From Candidatus Heimdallarchaeota archaeon (GTDB taxonomy: Archaea; Asgardarchaeota; Heimdallarchaeia; Heimdallarchaeales; Kariarchaeaceae), in assembly GCA_030149205.1 (NCBI GenBank), contig JASBSB010000001.1:134357-198356 (forward strand): a stretch of DNA of 64,000 nucleotides. Reading direction: 5' to 3'. Every line of letters begins with the position of its first letter. The first letter of the stretch is position 1. The notes below the pieces were generated by a model that saw only the letters and a list, made by a program, of their open reading frames with translations, was not told the DNA's origin and searched no databases. A program made the translations under genes and the position numbers. Below, piece by piece: positions 1-57,897 of the stretch.

Positions 1-114
1 TCAATAGTAGATTCTTATCAACAAAAAGCTGCGAAATTACCACTCCCTAAAATTCTGCTCAAGTTAATCAGTTTACTGATAGAGGGAGTACAAGCTAAGA
101 TAAAGATTCTATAA
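1..114 (+). CDS. 3' end of an ORF entering from upstream of the window (unknown product)
   Basis: Frame 1 is open from base 1 to TAA at 112-114 (...KLPLPKILLKLISLLIEGVQAKIKIL*). Only 37 codons are visible and no motif is recognised. Confidence 0.2.
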   Translation, partial: SIVDSYQQKAAKLPLPKILLKLISLLIEGVQAKIKIL

Positions 115-552
115 ATTATAATTGTAAAATCATATTTGCTCTAATGTCGATTTTTGATTTTAAATTTGTTCATGAAAGGTATTGTCCATTGTAACCAGAA
201 CATCCCAATGAATTTGGGATTAAAATGAAAGAAATAGTTATTGATCGTAAAAAGAGAAGAGAAGAGTTGAAAACCAATATGGGTAGTTATCTAATTTAGT
301 GGTTTAGGTAGTTTACTTTACTAAATTAATACAATATTACAGAAGATTACAAAGATTAGATGTTTTAATTGCAAATATCATAAAAAACATTTCATCTTAG
401 TAAATTTTTTAGTTTGTACTAAAGCAGAGTATTATTTCACAAAAAACAATCTAAGTTTGTTAGAACAGAAGATAAACAACCATTTTAAGGAAAAATATAT
501 GCAAAAAGAAATTTAAGTTCGGGTTAATTCTTTTCAATGACCTAATATAATT

Positions 553-1386
553 TCAAGTGTCAAACTCTAATAAATCTATAAAGTCACACAATTTACAAAA
601 TTGACATACCTTAGATGTGAAATCTTGTTCAGGTAACTTTTTTATATTATTTAATTGTTGTGATTTTTCGTATAAATTAGAAATCTCTTGCAATAATCCC
701 CCAATCGTTTTCTGGTCAATTTTTTGAATTTGATCAAATTTTGGTTTACTATACCAAAGTTCAAGATTTATTTGCTGGTCTGGAAAAGAACTGTATAATA
801 TTTCACCATAAATTTTTATTTGATTCTCATCTTCTAGTTTTGGAGTACCCGTTTTGTATTCAATTATTCGTAATCCACCTGTTTCAGAAAATGCTACCAA
901 GTCAATCTTACCACGTATTTGAAAATTGTGGTTAATTCTATTGATAACAGTAAATTCATCTTGAATTACAAGTGATGTTATCTCATTATTATTAATTGTA
1001 ACCAAACTTTCTGCCATAAGAGCAAGATTATGAAGTTGACTTGTAATTATATCAAAACTATTTGAAAATTCTTGGCGATGGTATTTCCATGGACCTGTAT
1101 TATTCATCCATATTTTTTTTATTGAATCTAATTCAATTTCCATTGATAATAATATTGCATCCTTTATATTCTTACTTTTACGGTGATAAAAAAATTCAAC
1201 ATTACTAAAATTTCTTAGGAATACTCTCTGTAAAATTAAATGTAAAAAATTTCCCGCGTATACAAATTTGTTAGGTGTAAATGGTATTTTTATCTCCTGT
1301 TGAGCATATAATACCTGTAACATTGTTCTTCTTTTACAATTAAATTCATTTACACTTGTAACTCCTAATCTTATTGATTTATTCAT
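553..1386 (-). CDS. Cas4-like PD-(D/E)xK nuclease with predicted 4-Cys (Fe-S) cluster; last gene of the Argonaute operon
   Basis: Motif order matches the Cas4/AddB family. N-terminal Cys (SVNEFNCKRR), GNFLH, GKIDLV...RIIEYKTG (D...ExK core), QIKIY (QxxxY) and C-terminal CQFCKLC. The ATG overlaps the upstream gene's stop by 8 nt (1379-1386). Confidence 0.8.
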   Translation of the reverse strand: MNKSIRLGVTSVNEFNCKRRTMLQVLYAQQEIKIPFTPNKFVYAGNFLHLILQRVFLRNFSNVEFFYHRKSKNIKDAILLSMEIELDSIKKIWMNNTGPWKYHRQEFSNSFDIITSQLHNLALMAESLVTINNNEITSLVIQDEFTVINRINHNFQIRGKIDLVAFSETGGLRIIEYKTGTPKLEDENQIKIYGEILYSSFPDQQINLELWYSKPKFDQIQKIDQKTIGGLLQEISNLYEKSQQLNNIKKLPEQDFTSKVCQFCKLCDFIDLLEFDT

Positions 1387-3148
1387 TTAATGTCCTCCTA
1401 TTTTCCAATAAAAATTCTGAAGAATAGTGCATAGCTAATCCAAGGATAAATGGAAATTTCGGTTTTGATAAACTGTATGGGTTTATGAAGGTTTGATAAA
1501 ATACATCTTGAAGTATTTCTTGGATATCATGCAATCCTTTGATTTTTTCAATAAATAATGGTTTGGGAATACCTTCAAATAAATCATTAGGATATCCATT
1601 TGTCATAATTAATGACTTGTTATCATTAATACTAACTGATAAGCCATCAATTGCTTTAGAAGTATTTTCGATCTGTCCATAAAGGATTGAGTGTGATGAA
1701 TTAACTAAAACTAAACAAAAATTATAATGGGAAATTTTATCAATTAAAGGTAATAACTGTCTGTCTGAAATTTGAATTAAGAAGTGGTCTGAATCACTAA
1801 AATTAATCAATTTTTGTAAGAAATCATTAATTTTAACTTTTTCATCGATATTTTTGTCTCTATCATTATAAAAAATATCATGTGAAATGTTAATATTTCC
1901 CTTATTAGAACTAACACCTGATAATATCATCCATTCTCCTGCATAATATGGTGTTATATGAAGAGCGATTATATTCTGATGATACTTCATTGATACATTT
2001 TGATATAATTTTCGAGTGTATCTAAATCTAATATTCAACCAAATTAGTTTTACAATTTTTCCCCAATCATCTTCTAATATTGTTGAAAATTTAATGATTT
2101 TATTTGGAATTACAATTTTTTCTTTAGTTTTATTGTATACATATCCTGAACCCTTTATTCTATCGTCGATACATATTATAGCTGCATCTGCCTCAAATTT
2201 ATGAAGCTTGGAGACATAATAGCTTTGAATTGTAATATTTAATCCTGTAACTTCTGCAAAATATGAAATAAAATTCTGAATCTTAATGGGGGTATTATCT
2301 GTCACAGATTTATCAATTAAAAATAATATATTGCTAATAAATGGATCAAATGAAATGTTATCCTCTAAAATATCTACTAATGGAGTAGTGTTTAAAGTTT
2401 CAATAGTGTTTGAATTGATTTTTATCGACGGACTATTTATTAAATCCCCTTTCAGATTCTCAATAACAGATAATCTTACATTTCCGATTTGATTTGTATT
2501 TATTACTTTGATTATTTTAAGGAATCTTTGTTCCACTGATTCAAAATTTCGATGTAATTGTAATACTTCTTTTTCTATTACACCAGGTATTAATTTATTA
2601 GATGTTAAGTTAAATGAATTTTCAGATATTTCATGTCTGGGATCATAAAAAACCATAACCTTATCATCTCGCATCTCATGGCATTCAAACCTTTCAGCTT
2701 GAAAAATCGAATACGTGAATGTTTCATTAAACTGTTCAACAGTTTTTTCTACGATAGGATTTATTCTTTGACTAGCTACTCCTTTAGATTTTCCAATAAA
2801 TGACAGTACCTCACTGGGTCTATAATAACCTTTGTTTGAAAATGTAATATATAAGGCTGTCAATACGAATATGTCAAGATTTTGTATTTCTTTCTTTTCA
2901 TTAATCTCTGTAGTACAGATTGAAACAGGGATTGTAGCAATCTCCAAATGTGAAGGTGGTTTTTGTGCGAAAAGGTAATATGAATCCTTTACATATATAA
3001 TTGTAAATGGAACATCTGATAAAAAATCACCATTTTTTAATGCAAAGGTCAGAAAGCTAAATTCATAGTTGTACTGCATGGAAACTTTGTACATTTTTAA
3101 TACAGCTGTATCAATTTGTGCTATCCAACCAAGTATTTTGCATATCAT
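1379..3148 (-). CDS. Second, highly diverged Argonaute-like protein (MID-PIWI-like C-terminal half; N-terminal ~300 aa unassigned)
   Basis: By eye, aa ~325-592 follow the MID->PIWI motif order. YVYNKTKEKIVIPNKII is MID-like; KLIWLNIRFRY sits at the aKlGG helix position; HFLIQISDRQL at the hRDG strand position. GIPKPLFIEKI is GtprP-like and the C-terminal KPKFPFILGLAMHYS sits at the lPxPxxYA position. The ATG at 3148-3146 overlaps the pAgo TGA at 3147-3145 (ATGA). The track's GTG start at 3157 is the alternative. Confidence 0.55.
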   Translation of the reverse strand: MICKILGWIAQIDTAVLKMYKVSMQYNYEFSFLTFALKNGDFLSDVPFTIIYVKDSYYLFAQKPPSHLEIATIPVSICTTEINEKKEIQNLDIFVLTALYITFSNKGYYRPSEVLSFIGKSKGVASQRINPIVEKTVEQFNETFTYSIFQAERFECHEMRDDKVMVFYDPRHEISENSFNLTSNKLIPGVIEKEVLQLHRNFESVEQRFLKIIKVINTNQIGNVRLSVIENLKGDLINSPSIKINSNTIETLNTTPLVDILEDNISFDPFISNILFLIDKSVTDNTPIKIQNFISYFAEVTGLNITIQSYYVSKLHKFEADAAIICIDDRIKGSGYVYNKTKEKIVIPNKIIKFSTILEDDWGKIVKLIWLNIRFRYTRKLYQNVSMKYHQNIIALHITPYYAGEWMILSGVSSNKGNINISHDIFYNDRDKNIDEKVKINDFLQKLINFSDSDHFLIQISDRQLLPLIDKISHYNFCLVLVNSSHSILYGQIENTSKAIDGLSVSINDNKSLIMTNGYPNDLFEGIPKPLFIEKIKGLHDIQEILQDVFYQTFINPYSLSKPKFPFILGLAMHYSSEFLLENRRTLNE

Positions 3149-5346
3149 ATAAACCACGGCTTTTTAAAATGGAAATTCGCCATATCTTTAGGAATTTTGC
3201 CCATACCTCTACTTGATGAATGAATTGGAACTGGGAGCTTAGTTTCAATTCTATCCCATCCAGAATAACAATGGCATAAATCAAAAATCTCATAAAGAAG
3301 TTTTTCAAATCTCTCCTCATCACATTTAATATTTCTTAATACAATTGGATTTTGAGTCCCAACATTTCCTTGTGTTGAAATTAAACCAACTTCAGTCTTA
3401 GATATCCAATAAAAAGTCCCAATATGTGGCCGAAATATTCTATTTTTTTCATTCTTTGAATAAATACGAAGTGGAGACGAAGAAATTACCTCAACAATTG
3501 AATGTTTTAAATTAAGAATATTAAGGCTATGTTCAATATCTTTTAATTCTCTATCATAAAATTTTCCATTCTTTATTAAAACTACTTCATCATTATTTTT
3601 AGTGAGTAACTTAAAAGCACTTTCAAAATTTTGTTGACGATTTTCGACGTTATCAGAAATGTAGTATCCTCCACTAAATCTACCCGAATTATAATATGAA
3701 TTTAGTAACCCCCGATATTTAGTTGCATCTAGTGAGATGTTTTGAGATTGCAAACCAATATATTTTACAAAACCATTTTCATTAACATTCAGTAACCATG
3801 AATGTAGACCTAACTTTGCAATTATACCCAAAAATATATTCCGAAAATACCCATTTTGTCTTGATTCAATTTTATCCTTCAGAACATTAAAATTAATTCC
3901 CTGATGAGGATATTCATTTTTTATTAATTCACCAGATACTAATTCTTTGAATTCACTATCTACACTATCATTATCAGAATGAACCACTATGATACAATTG
4001 TTGTTATTTACAAATTTATCCATATATTCTGATAAGTCTCCCTTTTTTTCGAGAAGTTTTATTTCATCAAACTCAATTTCTGTACTAAGAAATTGTTGAA
4101 GAATGATTATTTCTTTTGTTTCTTTTAGAAATGGCTTTTTTATTAATCCTAATTGATATTCATTATACTCTCGATATAATAAAATCGATATTTTTAACTT
4201 TTCGGGACCCTTATCAAATATCCCATATTTTTGAATTTCTAATGCTGGGTAATCAGTCCTATGTGAATTACCAATAATGTAATTATTCAAATCTAATAGT
4301 CCAGAGTTACATGAGTTCCAAGATTGAAAGTTTCTAATTGGATTTAGAGTTATTGAACCCACGGTTAAATTACCTATAAAACGCATATAATTCTGTGATC
4401 GTTTAAATCTAATCGGAGGGTCAGGCCTAATTTGTTTCATCAGGGCACCTCTATCATGATAATCCAAATGTGAAAATGTTGGTAATTCTCGAATTCTTTC
4501 TAAAGGGTATGAATAATACTCATCATTATCATTTTTATAGAATGATAACGCAATAGGTGGTTCATCTTGTATAAATTCACCAAGCACGGGTGCTCTAGGA
4601 CAAATGAATTTTTGTTTGTGAAACTCAATTATATCTAAATTATCAATTATTACCTCTGAAGGTTTCTTATTTACAATTTTTTTCAATTTCACAGTCTTCC
4701 CAGTTCCAGCATATCTACAGTTTGAGAAAGGATCCTGTTTTTCTGGACATTGAATAATTGGACAAGTATCTACATAATAATTTTTCGGATTTATTTCTAT
4801 ACTAGAATATGAAAGTTTCTCTCTCAATGATACGGATGAATGAAATTTATATTTGAGATCAACTATTACTCCAACTTCACCATTTTTAAGCAAAATTGGA
4901 GCATATTGAAATCCTGGGAAAACATCAATTTTTCCAAAACCCTCGATGGTCTCAGGGCTAGAAACCTCAAATATTGAATTGTAAGTTTCTTGTATCTTCC
5001 ATAATTTATTACTATGTCGTAAATTGACAGCAATAGCATCTCCAATAATTCTTTTCAATAGATCTAAATCATCATCATTTTGGGCTGAAACTAATCTACT
5101 AGTAGGAGGAAATAAATTTACTGCCAAATCTTTTTCGAAATCATCTTCAAGTAATTCGGTTGAAATTATCTTATCTCCAAATTGAATTATAATTTTACGT
5201 CGATTATCTGGAACTTTCCTAAGATTAAGTAATACATCACCAAGTTTTCGAAAGTTTATTTCTTCTTTTTTCCTATATTCAAAGACTGTAACTTTATCTT
5301 TGAATGGTGTTTTTTCAAATTTTAAAATATTAGTTATTATTTCCAT
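3145..5346 (-). CDS. Long prokaryotic Argonaute (N-PAZ-MID-PIWI), predicted catalytically inactive
   Basis: N-terminal TNILKF; PAZ-like block DVFPGFQYAPILLKNGEVGVIVDLKYKF. The MID/PIWI junction reads YPHQGINFNVLKD...FRNIFLGIIAKLGLHSWLL. The PIWI C-terminus reads GTQNPIVL...ETKLPVPIHSS. The hRDG strand reads IKNG (nt 3565-3576), so the third catalytic Asp is Asn. Confidence 0.85.
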   Translation of the reverse strand: MEIITNILKFEKTPFKDKVTVFEYRKKEEINFRKLGDVLLNLRKVPDNRRKIIIQFGDKIISTELLEDDFEKDLAVNLFPPTSRLVSAQNDDDLDLLKRIIGDAIAVNLRHSNKLWKIQETYNSIFEVSSPETIEGFGKIDVFPGFQYAPILLKNGEVGVIVDLKYKFHSSVSLREKLSYSSIEINPKNYYVDTCPIIQCPEKQDPFSNCRYAGTGKTVKLKKIVNKKPSEVIIDNLDIIEFHKQKFICPRAPVLGEFIQDEPPIALSFYKNDNDEYYSYPLERIRELPTFSHLDYHDRGALMKQIRPDPPIRFKRSQNYMRFIGNLTVGSITLNPIRNFQSWNSCNSGLLDLNNYIIGNSHRTDYPALEIQKYGIFDKGPEKLKISILLYREYNEYQLGLIKKPFLKETKEIIILQQFLSTEIEFDEIKLLEKKGDLSEYMDKFVNNNNCIIVVHSDNDSVDSEFKELVSGELIKNEYPHQGINFNVLKDKIESRQNGYFRNIFLGIIAKLGLHSWLLNVNENGFVKYIGLQSQNISLDATKYRGLLNSYYNSGRFSGGYYISDNVENRQQNFESAFKLLTKNNDEVVLIKNGKFYDRELKDIEHSLNILNLKHSIVEVISSSPLRIYSKNEKNRIFRPHIGTFYWISKTEVGLISTQGNVGTQNPIVLRNIKCDEERFEKLLYEIFDLCHCYSGWDRIETKLPVPIHSSSRGMGKIPKDMANFHFKKPWFI

Positions 5347-5348
5347 AT

Positions 5349-6035
5349 TTATCTCTCTTTGTTTTTAAGTAACTCAAATGAACTTATCACCGCAAGGTCT
5401 GTGTTAACCGTTTTTGTTAGTATTTTCTTACAAGCTGAATGCATTATGAAAAATCCTGTACCTAACGCAGTTTTCATTAACTCGTTTTTTGCGGATTGCA
5501 ATAAAATATCATTAACTATTATTTCAGGATGAACTGATGTTGAAAAATATACTTGGATTGTAAATGAACTCGTATCATCCAAAAACAAAAAAGAATTTAT
5601 TCCATCTTTTTTCCAATTACACTTCAGTGAAAAAAGATCTTCAATTCTTGAATTAAACCCGTCTAATCTATTAAATTCTTCGCTAATTTCTTTGATAGGT
5701 AGTATAATTGAAGATTTTAACAAATAATTCCCCATAACTCTCAGGTGCCAATTAGAATTAAATTTATCTACGTCTAATACTTGTATAGTTTGATTGGATT
5801 GATACAATCCTGTATCTTCTTCATAAGAAAGCAGATTATCTTTAGTTAATTGGCTAAGTATCATTTCAACTTCTACATTTGGTATATGATCAAAATATAG
5901 ATTACTTCTCCCAGAACTCATCCAAATATGTTTCACTATATTTGATTTTTTTGCACTACCATAATCTCGCAGGAAATCAAGAATTAATTTTTTAATTGCT
6001 TTCTCCATTGAATCTTTAGGTTTCATATCAATCAC
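5349..6035 (-). CDS. Winged-helix (wHTH)-like N-terminal domain protein with uncharacterised C-terminal domain; Argonaute-operon gene 2
   Basis: The N-terminal ~75 aa (EKAIKKLILDFLRDYGSAKKSNIVKHI...ILSQLTKDNLLSYEEDTGLY) has a wHTH-like helix/wing pattern. The GTG at 6035 overlaps the upstream TGA (GTGA); an ATG at 6026 is the alternative. Only 2 nt separate its stop from the pAgo ATG. Confidence 0.5.
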   Translation of the reverse strand: MIDMKPKDSMEKAIKKLILDFLRDYGSAKKSNIVKHIWMSSGRSNLYFDHIPNVEVEMILSQLTKDNLLSYEEDTGLYQSNQTIQVLDVDKFNSNWHLRVMGNYLLKSSIILPIKEISEEFNRLDGFNSRIEDLFSLKCNWKKDGINSFLFLDDTSSFTIQVYFSTSVHPEIIVNDILLQSAKNELMKTALGTGFFIMHSACKKILTKTVNTDLAVISSFELLKNKER

Positions 6036-7072
6036 CTGACTATCTCCTTAATCTTTGACTTTAGTTCTTCAGAATTATCTACAATTACAACATTCTTAAA
6101 ATTGTAGCGTATTTCATCATAATATTGATTAGAATTGTTTAAAATAATAAAATGGGTAATATCAATAAACGAAGTAAAAGCAAAATTAATTTCATCTACC
6201 TCTTCAGAAGGTAAATGCATATCTACAATCCATAATCCAATTTTTAGGTTATTCAATTCAATGTAAATGGGAATTGTTATACTCTCATTCTGACTATTTG
6301 TAATCTTTATTTCCTTACGGATAAAAATTGGATTGAATTCTTGAATTACATTGAGGAAGCTTTGACCAATTTTCTCCTGTAAATACTTGAAATCATCACT
6401 GAAAGCCGGAATTCCAGATATTTCCTCAAAATCTTTTGCTGTGTATTTTGTTCTCATTTGAGAGCTTGATTTTGTAATTATTTGTTCTATTATATCTTGA
6501 AATATTTGTTTAGGATTACGAATTAGAATATTATATTTTGATAGCTCTTCAAGACATTTACTCTTAATATTATCGAATGGACTTGATGGATGATTGGGGG
6601 CAAAATAATTCCAAACAAATTCTATTTTTTTGAATACTTCAATTTTTTTCTGATCTGTGAATTTTCCTTTGAAAAGAGAATTTATTCTACCTTTATCAGC
6701 ATTTGAAATTTCTAAATTGTTCTGAAGGTTTTGTTGAATTTGCAGTAGTTCAGTAATTTCTGCATTCCAACCCGATTGAGTTGTAAATCGAAATTTAATT
6801 TCTTTTCCAGATAAATTTTTTTCATCTTCCTGTATGAACTTTGTTAAAATTGGTATCAAACTTGATTTATTCCAGACACTATGTTCTTTTTTCTTTACCT
6901 GTTCAAATATAAAGTACCCAGTATATTCTATGTTAATATCTTCTAATTCATCATCCTTTGATTCAAATTCAATTGATAAAATCTGATCTCCTTTAATGAA
7001 TTCAATGACTCTTAGTACTCCAACCATATTTTGGTAATTAATACCATAGTTTGTATCAATTCCACTTGGCAA
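6032..7072 (-). CDS. DUF4297 / Cap4-type dsDNA-endonuclease-like (PD-(D/E)xK fold) N-terminal domain protein; first gene of the Argonaute operon
   Basis: The N-terminus (YGINYQNMVGVLRVIEF...IEFESKDDELEDINIEY...FEQVKKK) matches the G-x-x-YQ ... E..D.D ... QxK pattern of DUF4297 nuclease domains. The C-terminal ~220 aa are unassigned. A TTG start at 7072 is needed to include the YQ motif. Confidence 0.6.
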   Translation of the reverse strand: MPSGIDTNYGINYQNMVGVLRVIEFIKGDQILSIEFESKDDELEDINIEYTGYFIFEQVKKKEHSVWNKSSLIPILTKFIQEDEKNLSGKEIKFRFTTQSGWNAEITELLQIQQNLQNNLEISNADKGRINSLFKGKFTDQKKIEVFKKIEFVWNYFAPNHPSSPFDNIKSKCLEELSKYNILIRNPKQIFQDIIEQIITKSSSQMRTKYTAKDFEEISGIPAFSDDFKYLQEKIGQSFLNVIQEFNPIFIRKEIKITNSQNESITIPIYIELNNLKIGLWIVDMHLPSEEVDEINFAFTSFIDITHFIILNNSNQYYDEIRYNFKNVVIVDNSEELKSKIKEIVR

Positions 7073-7091
7073 TATTTTAAATCTAGTTTTC

Positions 7092-7102
7092 TTTATAATA
7101 AT
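7092..7102 (-). promoter_or_regulatory. TATA-box-like element upstream of the Argonaute operon
   Basis: The minus strand reads attattataaa about 25 nt upstream of the TTG start at 7072, a spacing compatible with a leaderless or short-leader archaeal transcript. TATA-like strings are common in this AT-rich DNA. Confidence 0.3.
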
Positions 7103-7454
7103 TCAGAGATATTGTAATAATCAAAATGAAAGTTTTAAAAATTTAAATATACAATATGTGATATCAAAAAAATTTTATTGCAAAGACTTAAAATAAATGA
7201 GAACTCGAAGCTGGATAAAGACCTATAACCGTGATTTCCTTGAAATATCTCGGATATAATCAAGAAAATAAATTAGTAAATCTAAATCTTGATTGAAATA
7301 TTCTTCGTCTACTAATTATTCTTATTATATTGTTATCTTATAAGAGTTGGAAGTACACAGATATTCGACTTGCTAAGTCAGTATACAATATATATTCAAC
7401 CAGTATCTTTCAACTATGACTACCAATTCCAAAAAAAAAATGAAATTGAATGAA

Positions 7455-8597
7455 TTAATCCAGGTGTTTATTGTTTTTCTTAATATGCTGCAATGTATCT
7501 TCATTGTGAGCTGCCAAATACTCAAAAGAATTGTCATACATAGTTTGATTTAATCTATGAATAATGTCACTTTTTACGAAAATACTATATTCAACAGGAG
7601 TTTTGTTATCAATTGTAGATAAATTATTTGTTATGTATTTCATAAAATTTTCCAGATTTAACAATCCTATCGCAATTGTGGGATTAATTGGTATGTAATA
7701 TTCTAACATAACTGATACTCCATTTACTATTAACTCTGCTATAATCAATGGATTGTCTGAAGTAATTAATTCTACAGGGTGGTCTTGAGGATTTAGTCCA
7801 GATAGATTAATTATGATGATCGGCCTGAGTTCAGTATGTTTTAGTGGTTTATCAACTGTTTCATCAGGCAATTTTTGTAAAACTTCTCTGATTTTATTTT
7901 CAATTTCGATTTGACTATCTTTATGATCTAAAGATTTCTTTATTCCGATACTAATATTTTTACTTATTAAGGATATCATACCTTGTAAGTCGTTTTTTAA
8001 AAAATACCCCTGTGCTTTTTGTAAAAACACCTCGTCATATTTAATATTACTTTGATATAGAATCTCCTGTGTTTCAGTGCTAATAAAACTAAAATCCAAT
8101 ATCTTACTAAATTTCATGTAATTTCTAAATGAAGGTGTTCTAAACGTTAGATGATTAATAAAATCACATAAAATTTCGAAATTTGATTGCAAATGCATAG
8201 CATCTATGAAAGTCTCCGCAAATTTTTTTATATCTAATGATTTTTTGAATATGTTATCTCTATTACTAGGGTTGTAAATTTTTATTTTCTCAGTTTGAAA
8301 ATTTAATTTTTCTAATCCAGTAAAGAACTTAGCGACTTTATCCTCAGCTTCACTCATCAAATCGTCAATCAGTTCCTCTAAAAACCTTGGAGAATAAAAA
8401 CTTTGATTAATCTTTTTTTTGTCAATATCCCCAGTCTTTTTGTTCAACCTAAATACTCTTTTCTTTTTGTTATCTTTTTCAAAATCCTCCTCAATAACAA
8501 AATTTCGTAGAAACCACTGAGGAATATAATGTTGTTTTCTGCCTGACATGAACATAACTGTGGAATAATTGTATATTATAGTATTTGAACGAGACAT
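7455..8597 (-). CDS. DUF4238-like protein (function unknown)
   Basis: The N-terminal motif GRKQHYIPQWFLRNF matches the H-Y-[IV]-P-Q-x-[FY]-L-x-x-F signature of DUF4238. The rest is unassigned. It lies in the same low-GC block as the Argonaute operon. Confidence 0.55.
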   Translation of the reverse strand: MSRSNTIIYNYSTVMFMSGRKQHYIPQWFLRNFVIEEDFEKDNKKKRVFRLNKKTGDIDKKKINQSFYSPRFLEELIDDLMSEAEDKVAKFFTGLEKLNFQTEKIKIYNPSNRDNIFKKSLDIKKFAETFIDAMHLQSNFEILCDFINHLTFRTPSFRNYMKFSKILDFSFISTETQEILYQSNIKYDEVFLQKAQGYFLKNDLQGMISLISKNISIGIKKSLDHKDSQIEIENKIREVLQKLPDETVDKPLKHTELRPIIIINLSGLNPQDHPVELITSDNPLIIAELIVNGVSVMLEYYIPINPTIAIGLLNLENFMKYITNNLSTIDNKTPVEYSIFVKSDIIHRLNQTMYDNSFEYLAAHNEDTLQHIKKNNKHLD

Positions 8598-8704
8598 TAC
8601 AAAATTAATCGATAATTAGATCATTTTCTGAAATTTCAAAGGTTTGTGTTAACAAAAATAATATTAGTCAATATTTCAGACTTGTGTTTCAATCAACAAC
8701 TAAT

Positions 8705-9319
8705 CTACGAATCGAAACCTTCAATTTCTTCAAGATCGTCATAGGTCTGTCTAACTGCTTGATGAACTTGATCTTCGGTCTTTGCACCAGTACACACAAG
8801 ATTCCCACTTTGGAAGAGCAACAATACTGTTTTAGGTTCTTTTAATCGATAGATAAGTCCAGGAAACTGCTCAGGTTCATACATTGATTGTTCTAACCAC
8901 ATGTTTGCGGCTTCAAGGTTAATCACCCTATTGTTGAAATTCCCAGAGGCAACAATATTTTGGACGATAATTTCAGGAGTCTCTTCAATGGTTGTGCCCA
9001 CAGTTCTTAGGATATCAATCATCTGATAAACACCTTGATGAACCATTTCCTCAGATTTTGCACCCGTTATAACCAGTTTACCACTTGAAAACACAAGGGA
9101 TGAGATTTTAGGCTTTTTAGTTTTTAAGATCAGACCAGGAAACTGTTCTGGGTTATAGCTTACTTCTAATTCATCATCATCAATTAACTGTTGAAAGATA
9201 CTGACTAAATCTATGTTTGTGAACAGGTTAACTGAAGCTACACAGTTTTGGATTATAATTTTGAAATCTAATCCGTCGTCTTTGTTTTTTTCTCTTGAGG
9301 GAAGTGTTTCTTGACTCAT
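8705..9319 (-). CDS. tbp: TATA-box binding protein
   Basis: Two direct repeats are present, each with QNxVAS...EQFPGLI...SGKLVITGAK / SGNLVCTGAK. Confidence 0.95.
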   Translation of the reverse strand: MSQETLPSREKNKDDGLDFKIIIQNCVASVNLFTNIDLVSIFQQLIDDDELEVSYNPEQFPGLILKTKKPKISSLVFSSGKLVITGAKSEEMVHQGVYQMIDILRTVGTTIEETPEIIVQNIVASGNFNNRVINLEAANMWLEQSMYEPEQFPGLIYRLKEPKTVLLLFQSGNLVCTGAKTEDQVHQAVRQTYDDLEEIEGFDS

Positions 9320-52680: not shown

Positions 52681-54189
52681 CTATCTTTTTAACTTTCTAA
52701 TAATTACCAAAATTAGTGTGAAAATAACGAATGAGATAATCGTAAAGGGAACAGGAGTAGTTTTGCTGTCAAACTGAGCGGACAAAATCCCTGAATTTTT
52801 GATTTGTCTAACCCATAGCCCATTAGAGTTTTGACTATCTAGCAAGGTAGTTGTTAATCTTTGAATTGTATTGTTGACTATCCCCGATAGTTGGAGAATC
52901 CGCAAAGTTTCATAATTTTTAGCCAAAACCTGCAATACCCCAGCTATACCTTCAGAATAGGAAAGATCGAAAAATCGATCTTCTTTATTAGACGAGTGGA
53001 TCAGATAATAATTCCAACTACCTGTTTGGACGTTGGTTACATTCACAATTTGTGAGTTAAGAAAGTCAAGAAAGGCAGATTTTAGAGATGTCTGTTGAGT
53101 CCGAGTAAGTTTATTATAACTACTCAAAAGGAAATCAAAAACACCAAGGACACCTGAACTTAGGGAGTTTAGTTGAATTGAACTGTTCGGTTGCACGTGA
53201 AAATAGGGGGAGACAGAGGAAAGTTTATTCATCACTAATTGGAGTGGTGTTTGTATCTCTTTTGAATAATCAGTTTGTGAGCTTCCTAAAGATTCAAGGA
53301 TACCAGAGACACCTGAATTAAGATTGTAATTAAGCTCAGTTGTATCGTTTTCCGTATTCCAAAGACCATTGGGTAGCTGCCTAGAGACCAAGTAGGAATA
53401 CACCTTTTTGGAAAAATCTAATATTGAGGAATTTTGACTTATTCCTGCAAAATTTTGAAGTGATAGGGCTATTCCTGCCATTCCCTTCCCATATCCGTAT
53501 ATTTCAACTCCAGCAAACCCCTTTTCAAATGGGTACCAAGGTATTGATATCCCCGATTGGTGTTTGGTTGAAATTGAATACAACCAATTCACTACTTTTT
53601 CTCCCCATTTAAGATAGGTTTGATTCTTTGTTAATTTATACAAGGAACCAACTGCTCCTAAGATTCCTGCTGAGCCGAATTCAAGTCCTGACAGAGGGAT
53701 GCCAAATGCTTTGCTCACATTTGAATCCGCATATCCCCAGAAAGCCTTGTTTCCATCCAAAATTGAGCGGGTAAATAATAAATTGAGGGCGGACTGAGCC
53801 TGGTCAAACCAAATCCTATTCTTTGAAAAATTGTAATAGGACAACAACGAATTAATTATTCCTGACTGACCATATTTATCACCAACATAAATTACTGAAT
53901 AATTATCAACCGTTTTTCGCCAAAGGGAGAGGGGGGTCCCATATAGGTCATTTATACGCTCATTTAAAAGGCCCTGATAAAATTGACTTAAGCTCCTGTT
54001 TACTTCACCCTGTAACTTAACTGGGAGAATAGGGTAGACTTTAATCAAAGTTTTTGCAATACCAGCCCCACCATATTCAAATCCCAGGTATGTTGAATAG
54101 TCTTGTTCTGGAAGCGGTGGTGCTTGAGAATGAACTGTCAGAGGCAAAATAAGAATTAATACTATAAATAACCCGGAAAATAACCTCAC
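52681..54189 (-). CDS. Secreted, C-terminally anchored LanC-like (alpha/alpha-toroid) repeat protein without cysteines
   Basis: Signal peptide present. There are at least 7 G-x-[AS]-G-I motifs at helix starts: GGAGIAKTL, GQSGIINSL, GSAGILGAV, GMAGIALSL, GVSGILESL, GVLGVFDFL and GIAGVLQVL. The C-terminus is a TM helix plus RKLKR. Confidence 0.5.
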   Translation of the reverse strand: MRLFSGLFIVLILILPLTVHSQAPPLPEQDYSTYLGFEYGGAGIAKTLIKVYPILPVKLQGEVNRSLSQFYQGLLNERINDLYGTPLSLWRKTVDNYSVIYVGDKYGQSGIINSLLSYYNFSKNRIWFDQAQSALNLLFTRSILDGNKAFWGYADSNVSKAFGIPLSGLEFGSAGILGAVGSLYKLTKNQTYLKWGEKVVNWLYSISTKHQSGISIPWYPFEKGFAGVEIYGYGKGMAGIALSLQNFAGISQNSSILDFSKKVYSYLVSRQLPNGLWNTENDTTELNYNLNSGVSGILESLGSSQTDYSKEIQTPLQLVMNKLSSVSPYFHVQPNSSIQLNSLSSGVLGVFDFLLSSYNKLTRTQQTSLKSAFLDFLNSQIVNVTNVQTGSWNYYLIHSSNKEDRFFDLSYSEGIAGVLQVLAKNYETLRILQLSGIVNNTIQRLTTTLLDSQNSNGLWVRQIKNSGILSAQFDSKTTPVPFTIISFVIFTLILVIIRKLKR

Positions 54190-56436: not shown

Positions 56437-57897
56437 TTGAAGCCTATGAATGACGATCGAATTGTCTTGCTCAGTGTAGGAATTGATATTGGGTCTTCTA
56501 CCAGTCACTTGGTATTTAGTAACATTACATTAGAGAGAAATGAGCATTCTTACTCAAGAAGGTTTGAAATTGTAGACAGAAAGGTTGTATTTTCATCCAT
56601 TATAATCGATACCCCCTTACTGAATCCCACAACAATAGATGTAAAACAATTGGTTAAATTCTTACAAGATCAGTACGAACTTGCAAAAATTACAAAAGAG
56701 CAGGTACAGACTGGTGTGGTCATAGTTACCGGTGAAACAGCAAAGAAGGAAAATGCAAAAGAAATAGTTGAAACCTTGGCAGAAGATGCAGGAAGCTTTG
56801 TTGCTGCAACAGCTGGACCAAATTTTGAGTCACTAATTGCAGCATATGGAAGTGGTGCAGTTCAAAGGTCAGAACGGGAAGAAATAGCAATTCTTTCATG
56901 TGATATCGGAGGAGGCACCTCGAACATTGCCATTTCTAAAGGTGGCTTAGTCCAAGAAACCTCCTGTATTTCAGTCGGAGGTCGACTCATCGCATTTGAC
57001 AAGGATAGGATTATAACCAGGATTGATGGACCAGGAAGACTGGTACTTGATGAACTGGGACTGAATCTAAATATAGGTTCTGAGATAACAGAGACCCAAC
57101 AGAAACAGGTTGCTGAAAGGCTTGCGACTGCATTACTAAATAGTATTACTCGAAACCATTCGGATAAGCTTGTTGATAAACTTCTGATGACGGAAAACGT
57201 TTCAATACCTATTTCAGAAATCGACGAGGTGTTCTACTCTGGTGGAGTCTCAGAGTTTGTTTATGGATCAAAAAGAGAGTACTATAATGATCTAGGATAC
57301 GAGCTAGGTAAAGCAATTAAGGTCAAAACAGAAGAATTAGGGATCCAAATGTTTGAACCAGAAAATAAAATTAGGGCAACGGTAATTGGTGCTGGAAACT
57401 ATACACTTCAGGTGTCAGGTTCTACCTGTTTCCTAGATGATATGGATTTTCCAATAAAAAATATACCCGTCTTGGAAGCAAACATCCAAAGAGAATTCTT
57501 GAGTGAAGATCATGTAATAGAAGAGATTTCTAAGGCTTTCAAGAGATTTGACTTCATTGAAGGAGAAGAGATAGTAGCTTTTCACTTTAAAGATCCTGTG
57601 AGAGCTGCATATCAAAAATTGAAGACCTTTGCGATCTCATTAGAGAAAGCACTTCCTAACACAATAAAGTCAGGGATACCTGTGATCTTGATTTTTGAAA
57701 GAGATATTGGAAATTCGGTTGGGAATGTAATCAGACGTGAAACAGCCATTGAAGATAATCTCATAAGTATTGATGAGATACATGTAAAAGAAGGAGATTG
57801 GATAGACATTGGCAAACCAATGGTAAGTGGTCAAGTTGTTCCAGTAACTGTCAAATCATTAGTCTTCTCCAAAACAAACAATAATAATGGAAGATAA
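56437..57897 (+). CDS. EutA-like ASKHA (actin/Hsp70-fold) ATPase
   Basis: LLSVGIDIGSSTSHLVFS (phosphate-1), VIVTGETAKKENA and SCDIGGGTSNIAI (phosphate-2). Its length is close to ethanolamine ammonia-lyase reactivase EutA. Confidence 0.7.
   Translation: MKPMNDDRIVLLSVGIDIGSSTSHLVFSNITLERNEHSYSRRFEIVDRKVVFSSIIIDTPLLNPTTIDVKQLVKFLQDQYELAKITKEQVQTGVVIVTGETAKKENAKEIVETLAEDAGSFVAATAGPNFESLIAAYGSGAVQRSEREEIAILSCDIGGGTSNIAISKGGLVQETSCISVGGRLIAFDKDRIITRIDGPGRLVLDELGLNLNIGSEITETQQKQVAERLATALLNSITRNHSDKLVDKLLMTENVSIPISEIDEVFYSGGVSEFVYGSKREYYNDLGYELGKAIKVKTEELGIQMFEPENKIRATVIGAGNYTLQVSGSTCFLDDMDFPIKNIPVLEANIQREFLSEDHVIEEISKAFKRFDFIEGEEIVAFHFKDPVRAAYQKLKTFAISLEKALPNTIKSGIPVILIFERDIGNSVGNVIRRETAIEDNLISIDEIHVKEGDWIDIGKPMVSGQVVPVTVKSLVFSKTNNNNGR

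Follow-up and report, generated by a model that had tools for sequence, protein, structure and literature searches.

A rare archaeal defence-like operon encoding two different, catalytically inactive Argonautes

To our knowledge, characterised prokaryotic Argonaute (pAgo) systems contain one Argonaute each, which works alone or together with non-Argonaute partners (APAZ-effectors, nucleases, SIR2 proteins, membrane proteins or Cas4-family enzymes). Here we analyse an operon with two Argonautes in a 64,000-nucleotide stretch of DNA from a Candidatus Heimdallarchaeota archaeon (contig JASBSB010000001.1; the whole stretch is referred to as the window). Its first Argonaute, AgoL, is a long pAgo, and the second, AgoS, whose start codon overlaps the stop codon of AgoL, is a genuine, highly diverged and catalytically dead Argonaute without a PAZ domain. 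Together with a Cas4-family nuclease gene directly after AgoS, the two form a trio that is a rare archaeal defence-like operon. Two Argonaute paralogues are also found within one pathway in the eukaryotic ping-pong PIWI pairs, which are active slicers encoded at separate loci and acting sequentially on RNA; in contrast, both Argonautes of the present operon are inactive and translationally coupled. The cassette consists of five closely packed minus-strand open reading frames (ORFs) within window positions 553-7072, in the order Cap4-like nuclease, ~230-amino-acid (aa) protein, AgoL, AgoS and Cas4-family nuclease:

7072..6032, minus strand: predicted effector of 346 aa, with a Cap4/DUF4297-type double-stranded DNA endonuclease domain (aa 3-202) and a C-terminal domain
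6035..5349, minus strand: conserved protein of ~230 aa (228 aa here) with no assigned family, a possible adaptor or regulator
5346..3145, minus strand: AgoL, a long pAgo of 733 aa with an inactive catalytic site and four invariant cysteines (from PADLOC, a profile search of the PDB and orthologue alignments)
3148..3145, minus strand: ATGA start/stop overlap of AgoL and AgoS (direct sequence reading)
3148..1379, minus strand: AgoS, 589 aa from its ATG, a PAZ-less, catalytically inactive Argonaute (N-L1-L2-MID-PIWI)
1386..553, minus strand: Cas4-family PD-(D/E)xK nuclease of 277 aa (from Pfam, PADLOC and motifs)

Neighbouring ORFs of the cassette overlap by 4 or 8 nucleotides, with the exception of a 2-nucleotide gap before the AgoL gene. 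The ATG of AgoS (3148-3146) overlaps the TGA stop of AgoL (3147-3145), and the Cas4-family gene overlaps the AgoS stop by 8 nucleotides. An alternative GTG start of AgoS is possible 9 nucleotides upstream, at 3157; the ATG start agrees with the N-termini of the homologues in the alignment. The initial annotation of this DNA had described the ORF at 3148..1379 as a second, strongly diverged MID-PIWI-like protein coupled to the pAgo by ATGA. This ORF exists as described, all five peptide strings quoted from it are present in its translation, and the coupling is real and recurs in homologous loci.

Several described systems share parts of this arrangement. In APACE, the Cas4-family enzyme ACE1 attaches to the MID-PIWI lobe of long-A pAgos, whose guides it trims (PMC12094033). 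As in APACE, a pAgo is here encoded beside a Cas4-family nuclease of ~280 aa with a D...(D/E)xK motif and 1+3 cysteines, and the best solved-structure matches of AgoL are long-A pAgos, including the ACE1 partner CtAgo. However, the APACE pAgos are active slicers in a two-protein system, whereas both Argonautes are catalytically dead in our cassette, which has two of them and adds a ~230-aa protein and a slot for a toxic effector; moreover, its Cas4-like gene adjoins the PAZ-less AgoS and not the long-A-like AgoL. In the BPAN, BPAS and BPAM systems (PMC10620215), long-B pAgos without catalytic activity switch on effectors that are nucleases, SIR2 proteins or membrane proteins. These systems likewise combine an inactive full-length pAgo with an interchangeable effector (PD-(D/E)xK nuclease or membrane protein) in one operon, the toxicity of the effector being predicted in our case. 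There, one pAgo is combined with one effector, whereas the present cassette also encodes a second Argonaute, a Cas4-family enzyme and the ~230-aa protein, its nuclease effector is of the Cap4/DUF4297 type with a caspase-like variant in existence, and its AgoL looks closer to the long-A than to the long-B pAgos by profile. In SPARTA, SPARSA and SPARDA, and in AfAgo with AfAgo-N (PMC10954474), N-L1-L2/APAZ-like lobes and inactive MID-PIWI lobes make up a PAZ-less Argonaute, as they do in AgoS. Unlike these systems, AgoS carries both lobes in a single polypeptide with no fused effector domain, and its conserved partner is a complete Argonaute in its own right instead of an APAZ-effector protein. 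The SiAgo-Aga1-Aga2 system of Sulfolobus islandicus (PMC11788926) differs in having a single Argonaute and no Cas4-family enzyme.

No co-encoded, tandem or heteromeric Argonaute pair is described in the literature that we covered, including pAgo surveys (PMC6299218, PMC2743648), studies of Asgard Argonautes (PMC11217426, PMC11291487) and the long-B and APACE papers; this coverage is incomplete, and a prior description is possible. Because of its fold, dead active sites, effector slot and genomic neighbourhood, the cassette would belong among the guide-dependent pAgo systems that act via accessory effectors, its distinguishing feature being two distinct Argonautes with apparently complementary losses. 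A conserved, translationally coupled pair of different dead Argonautes would add a new architecture to these systems.

AgoS, an Argonaute without PAZ

The window AgoS matches the PADLOC pAgo model PprPIWI at its C-terminus (E 1.2e-5), and neither AgoS nor AgoL has a match in Pfam or NCBIfam. In the PDB, a five-sequence AgoS profile finds KmAgo (7e-5), TtAgo (3e-4) and short pAgos, all at the PIWI end. A 5.8-billion-protein index holds four close AgoS homologues only. An exhaustive hidden Markov model (HMM) search of 1.84 billion representatives with the AgoS profile returned 56 proteins, comprising ~30 full-length relatives (585-705 aa), several fragments and a few long pAgos that match in PIWI only. 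Among the 30 family members that were aligned, 11 match a PADLOC pAgo model (best 1.3e-27, across the whole MID-PIWI profile) and 10 match a second such model (6.6e-22). The Pfam Piwi model detects two of the 30, the window AgoS not being one of them; AgoS and AgoL both escape this model, and such systems are therefore missed by routine annotation. Aligned by hhalign, the AgoS and AgoL families match with a probability of 97.7% (E 1.5e-12), and a direct BLASTP comparison of the two window proteins is not significant (E 0.1). As judged from these comparisons, AgoS and AgoL are homologous at the profile level only and are not recent duplicates.

An AlphaFold2 model of AgoS built from the 30-sequence alignment has a mean predicted local distance difference test score (pLDDT) of 89.0 and a predicted template modelling score (pTM) of 0.89. 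The 50 best Foldseek matches of this model are all Argonaute/PIWI structures (E 1e-22 to 3e-19, template modelling score 0.58-0.69). AgoS has the features that define the Argonaute/PIWI superfamily, namely a MID-PIWI lobe with an RNase-H-like fold, PIWI profile similarity and an N-L1-L2 lobe. The suspected diverged MID-PIWI protein is thus an Argonaute by both profile and fold, and the tentative reading of its N-terminal part as N/L1/L2- or APAZ-like is borne out on both counts by the N-L1-L2 lobe and by an N half that resembles APAZ/AfAgo-N. Its parts are as follows:

3148..2345, minus strand: N-terminal lobe, aa 1-268 (N, L1, L2)
2344..2009, minus strand: MID domain, about aa 269-380
2152..2021, minus strand: putative 5'-end-binding pocket motif, GSGYVYNKTKEKIVIPNKIIKFSTI...LNIRFR (G333, Y338, K342, K350, T356, R374, R376)
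2008..1382, minus strand: PIWI domain, about aa 381-589, RNase-H-like, with no alignable catalytic acid kept (from the TtAgo and KmAgo alignments, the family columns and the hhalign alignment to AgoL)

AgoS has a length of 589 aa versus 733 aa for AgoL. In the model, only ~12 residues occupy the position of PAZ, between the L1 strand 163-176 and the L2 helix 189-197, so PAZ is absent from AgoS as modelled. Two motifs in the N-terminal lobe, GKxKG (aa 119-123, window 2780-2794) and YDPRHEISE (aa 168-176, window 2621-2647), belong to the most conserved stretches of the family. We know of no Argonaute counterpart for either, and they may serve in contacts with a partner or with nucleic acid.

At the PIWI catalytic positions, AgoS has ALHITP in place of GxDV (H396), QISDRQ in place of RDG and LAMHY at the last D/H, with M573 standing where TtAgo has D660. 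In 29 of the 30 family members, the catalytic columns show no conservation, and AgoS lacks the DEDX residues; the call of catalytic loss is made on the three catalytic acidic positions, the glutamate-finger position of AgoS being not alignable. The sole exception is the most distant family member (P0041/P0067, 705 aa, encoded at 2254-4371 of the related locus L014), in which GIDV, RDG and AAED are kept and which may be an active slicer; a phmmer search of the PDB with this outlier gave no match.

The best conserved residues of the AgoS family are found in the MID domain. K342 is invariant in 30/30 members, which are otherwise 16-50% identical, G333, K350, T356 and R376 are each present in at least 90% of the 30, and Y338 is present in at least 90% of the ten closest members. 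In the model, Y338 and K342 lie four residues apart on the helix 334-344, K350 lies on the strand 349-353, and R374 and R376 follow. AgoS retains the Y-x3-K dyad (Y338, K342) and a G-x-P-x-P strand (G526, P528, P530), whose residues rank among the best conserved in the family. The initial annotation had held that none of the sharply conserved Argonaute residues is retained, which is right for the catalytic positions and wrong for this dyad and this strand. hhalign pairs K350 of AgoS with Q482 of AgoL, which HMMER in turn pairs with the conserved MID glutamine of CtAgo and CpAgo. Against a MID-PIWI segment of human Ago2, hhalign gives the register Y338=Y529, K342=K533 and K350=Q545, an alignment that is not significant (E 0.32) and serves as a check of consistency only. 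The MID pocket of AgoS is probably functional, with lysine replacing glutamine. Because AgoS probably keeps a basic, tyrosine-capped MID pocket, we expect that it holds a small nucleic-acid guide by its 5' end.

The same residues bear on the possibility that AgoS is a pseudo-Argonaute that binds no nucleic acid and serves AgoL or the effector as a structural scaffold or as a regulator, like the PIWI-fold protein Med13 or the APAZ/N-L1-L2 partners of short pAgos. The loss of PAZ and of the catalytic residues, the APAZ-like N half and a very fast divergence, which makes AgoS the least conserved member of the AgoL/AgoS/Cas4 trio, would all fit such a role. However, the strongest constraint in the family falls on basic and aromatic residues at the position of the MID pocket, which is hard to explain for a pure scaffold, and AgoL has an N-terminal lobe of its own and no need of an APAZ-like complement. 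We therefore regard a purely structural AgoS as improbable. Separately, the idea of AgoS as a decaying duplicate was considered and rejected in view of the ~30 full-length cluster representatives, the intact ORFs and the invariant pocket residues.

AgoL, the Cas4-family nuclease and the effector slot

AgoL matches PADLOC pAgo models with E values of 1e-39 and 9e-29. In the PDB, a profile of six AgoL orthologues finds CpAgo (2e-22), CbAgo (1e-18) and CtAgo (9iad, 4e-16), with matches that span from the PAZ/L2 region to the C-terminus. With the same profile, EcAgo, presumably the long-B pAgo of BPAN in E. coli, reaches no better than 9e-4. Among solved structures and by profile, AgoL looks closer to the long-A than to the long-B pAgos. 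The catalytic positions are substituted in 9/9 AgoL orthologues (GLQS or GYSS for GxDV; KNG, RGG or QGK for RDG; HSSS at the last position). Of the MID residues, the glutamine Q482 and K511 are kept in 8/9 orthologues. There is no conservation at the canonical tyrosine and lysine positions, which precede Q482 by 15 and 11 residues, and AgoL thus lacks the Y-K dyad. Four cysteines (C195, C200, C210 and C249; D-x-CP-x3-C-x9-C ... C, at about nucleotides 4600-4764) are invariant in 9/9 orthologues. Long pAgos have their PAZ domain in this region, and the cysteines suggest an insertion that binds metal.

The Cas4-family nuclease matches Pfam PDDEXK_1 (E 5e-11) and the PADLOC models Cas4c (2e-7) and Aga_Cas4-like_Nuc (2e-4). 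Eight orthologues keep its motifs, comprising one N-terminal cysteine, D...ExK, QxxxY and a C-terminal CxxCxxC, a set of features also described in ACE1 and ACE2 (PMC12094033). Its gene is found directly after AgoS in every locus where the position could be checked.

At the other end of the cassette, the effector gene of the window matches Pfam Cap4_nuclease (E 1e-9) and, with E values of 3e-4, the PADLOC models LmuA and HamA. A Cap4-like nuclease is also the first gene in the related loci L002 and L006, and a more distant relative takes this place in L012. In L011 it is replaced by a caspase-like Peptidase_C14 protein (144-1322, Pfam E 1e-15), which would be a candidate protease effector in an Argonaute operon. 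The first gene of L013 (5265-5924) encodes a 219-aa protein with two predicted N-terminal transmembrane helices, a putative membrane effector. A C-terminal region common to the nuclease and caspase variants is weakly indicated (E 0.009). Pfam and PADLOC detect no TIR, SIR2 or DREN domain in the operon. A swappable slot of this kind, including a caspase-like protease, would extend the catalogue of Argonaute-triggered effectors.

The ~230-aa protein between effector and AgoL has no match in Pfam, PADLOC or NCBIfam, and its orthologues occupy the same position in eight loci. Its best indication of a fold is a weak, non-significant profile match in the PDB to the winged-helix region of RPC6 (E 0.04), and its N-terminal ~80 aa may be winged-helix-like. 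Read from its GTG start, the protein is missing from a 15-billion-protein collection that contains its four neighbours; gene callers probably chose another start codon.

Conservation and possible mode of action of the cassette

AgoL, AgoS and the Cas4-family nuclease occur together in 13/13 distinct related loci examined, with AgoS identities of 16-50%. The full order of effector, ~230-aa protein, AgoL, AgoS and Cas4-like gene is found in L002 (an archaeal metagenome-assembled genome, MAG), L006, L007, L011 (a Candidatus Odinarchaeota MAG, GCA_048885365.1), L012 and L013. Most complete loci thus include the ~230-aa protein and the swappable first gene in the cassette. AgoL lies directly upstream and the Cas4-like gene directly downstream of AgoS in the window, L002, L006/L007, L010, L011, L012, L013 and L015. 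The cassette is partly seen on the shorter contigs L004, L010, L015, L001, L003 and L008: in L004, AgoL is upstream, AgoS is split into pieces of 143 and 447 aa and the contig ends right after it, and in L001, L003 and L008, the C-terminus of AgoL (...PVPIH...WF[IV]) is found just upstream of AgoS. The order is permuted in L014 to AgoS, Cas4-like gene and AgoL, all three genes being retained; its 740-aa protein (5231-7453) is identified as AgoL by a full-length match to the AgoL profile (probability 99.8%, E 4e-29). The short contig L009 carries an AgoS variant as in L014, followed by a Cas4-like gene. With at least one of these loci in a MAG of Asgard (Odinarchaeota) archaea, the finding is relevant to how Argonautes diversified close to the origin of RNA silencing in eukaryotes.

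The 4-nucleotide start/stop overlap (ATGA or GTGA) recurs in six homologous loci (L001, L002, L004, L006, L009 and L011). Over eight loci, pairwise identities co-vary between AgoL and AgoS (r = 0.90) and between AgoL and Cas4 (r = 0.97), with AgoS evolving fastest within the trio. A search started from AgoL recovered a single locus, L015, which also has AgoS. Homologue searches from AgoL and from the 30-sequence AgoS alignment returned close relatives only, a scan of genome contigs returned only the already known L002, and a metagenome scan with the AgoS alignment found nothing.

A different reading is that two independent Argonaute defence systems merely share a defence island, the ATGA overlap being incidental. 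Defence genes do cluster: restriction-modification genes neighbour the cassette in L006 and L013, in the latter directly upstream as type I genes, and the non-significant BLASTP comparison of AgoS with AgoL shows that the pair is no recent tandem duplicate. On the other hand, the two Argonautes are adjacent in all of the distinct loci, including the permuted one and MAGs from different samples, the genes co-diverge, overlapping start and stop codons recur, both Argonautes are catalytically dead and the operon has one effector slot. We consider a chance association highly improbable. In L012, the cassette adjoins Tn7-like genes (366-4779; TniB/AAA_22 and a 1041-aa protein with weak TnsA-N and Mu-transposase-C matches) and is possibly transposon cargo.

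The paired-Argonaute unit put forward in the initial annotation is strongly supported as a functional coupling of the two proteins by their conserved co-occurrence, which extends to the permuted locus; the unit itself is larger than proposed, including the Cas4-family nuclease, the ~230-aa protein and the swappable effector. On balance, we favour, with some confidence, a guide-dependent defence module of the abortive-infection type with a dual-Argonaute sensor in which AgoS is one subunit. As a plausible course of events, the Cas4-family nuclease would generate or trim guides, as ACE1 does for long-A pAgos, and AgoS would anchor the guide 5' end. AgoL would act with AgoS, most simply as a heteromeric sensor, in recognising invader nucleic acid. 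Recognition would then be passed via the ~230-aa protein to the swappable toxic effector (a DNA endonuclease, a caspase-like protease or a membrane protein), with an abortive-infection-type response as the outcome. The proposal builds on computed properties (the fold and family of AgoS and AgoL, catalytic loss, pocket conservation, co-occurrence, translational coupling, co-divergence and effector swapping), from which we infer that AgoS binds guides, that AgoL and AgoS are in physical contact, that the Cas4-like enzyme acts as proposed, that the effector is activated and that the cassette serves in defence. The restriction-modification genes beside the cassette in L006 and L013 and its position in a low-GC island of the window provide a defence context.

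Several observations weigh against this proposal. Simple co-inheritance would likewise produce synteny and co-divergence. Not every locus follows the five-gene scheme, as L014 has no recognisable ~230-aa protein or effector; its 302-aa and 191-aa genes downstream of AgoL were considered as candidates for the ~230-aa protein and are unrelated to it. Y338, K342 and K350 are mapped onto the pocket by sequence and secondary-structure register, supplemented by the non-significant Ago2 alignment (E 0.32). Furthermore, AgoS has lysine in place of the canonical pocket glutamine, and its helix-to-strand loop has 3-4 residues fewer than that of canonical Argonautes; the pocket could therefore bind something else. 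The defence role is read from gene content only, and a scan of viral contigs with AgoL found nothing.

A physical heterodimer of AgoL and AgoS is plausible. The two proteins show complementary losses: AgoS has no PAZ and keeps the MID pocket residues, and AgoL has a full N-terminal lobe and a degenerate MID pocket. In its strictest form, the heterodimer would be obligate and would split the tasks of one Argonaute, with AgoS holding the guide 5' end and AgoL, with its full N-PAZ lobe and putative Cys4 metal site, either holding the 3' end or the target, or sensing duplex formation and signalling to the swappable effector; we put this form forward tentatively and with more doubt than belief. If this is true, Asgard (Odinarchaeota) and other archaea would have the first two-Argonaute sensor, and Argonaute immunity would gain a new principle of organisation. 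The complementary losses raise the question of whether guide binding, target sensing and signalling are divisible between two Argonaute subunits.

The main rival to a dual-Argonaute sensor is a pair of cooperating, physically separate modules, one of AgoS and Cas4 for APACE-like acquisition and holding of guides and the other of AgoL, the ~230-aa protein and the effector in the manner of BPAN or BPAM, between which guides or signals would pass without a stable heterodimer. The gene order is compatible with such a division, as the Cas4-like gene directly follows AgoS wherever this could be checked, including in L014, where AgoL lies downstream of the AgoS-Cas4 pair, and the effector and ~230-aa genes are always on the AgoL side; two modules fit the permuted locus about as well as a heteromeric sensor does. 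In addition, the ACE1:pAgo complex has a 1:1 composition (PMC12094033), and long-B pAgos work with a single effector (PMC10620215). However, the 4-nucleotide overlap of the AgoL stop and the AgoS start in most loci suggests stoichiometric co-production, and AgoL lacks the Y-K dyad and so may not load a 5'-phosphorylated guide alone. Moreover, no locus with a single module was found, within a search of limited depth. We judge separate modules to be unlikely, if worth keeping in view beside the dual-Argonaute sensor.

Genomic surroundings of the cassette

The G+C content is 27-29% in the cassette region (window 1-8650) versus 34-39% in the remaining window, and the low-GC island borders a TATA-binding-protein gene (8705..9319). 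This composition suggests a horizontally acquired island whose left end lies beyond the window. The same island also encodes, on the minus strand just upstream of the cassette, a DUF4238 protein (window 7455-8597, Pfam E 6e-15), which has no PADLOC match and is not present in the homologous loci. Because of this absence, it is probably not part of the system. A search of Rfam found no RNA family in the window, and a sigma-70 promoter and terminator scan of the window stayed at chance level, the sigma-70 model being unsuited to an archaeon. A thermosome subunit and a class I lysyl-tRNA synthetase are encoded elsewhere in the window and, with the TATA-binding protein, mark the host as an archaeon. 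The housekeeping part of the window includes a LanC-like protein (52681-54189) and a EutA-like protein (56437-57897), both unrelated to the cassette.

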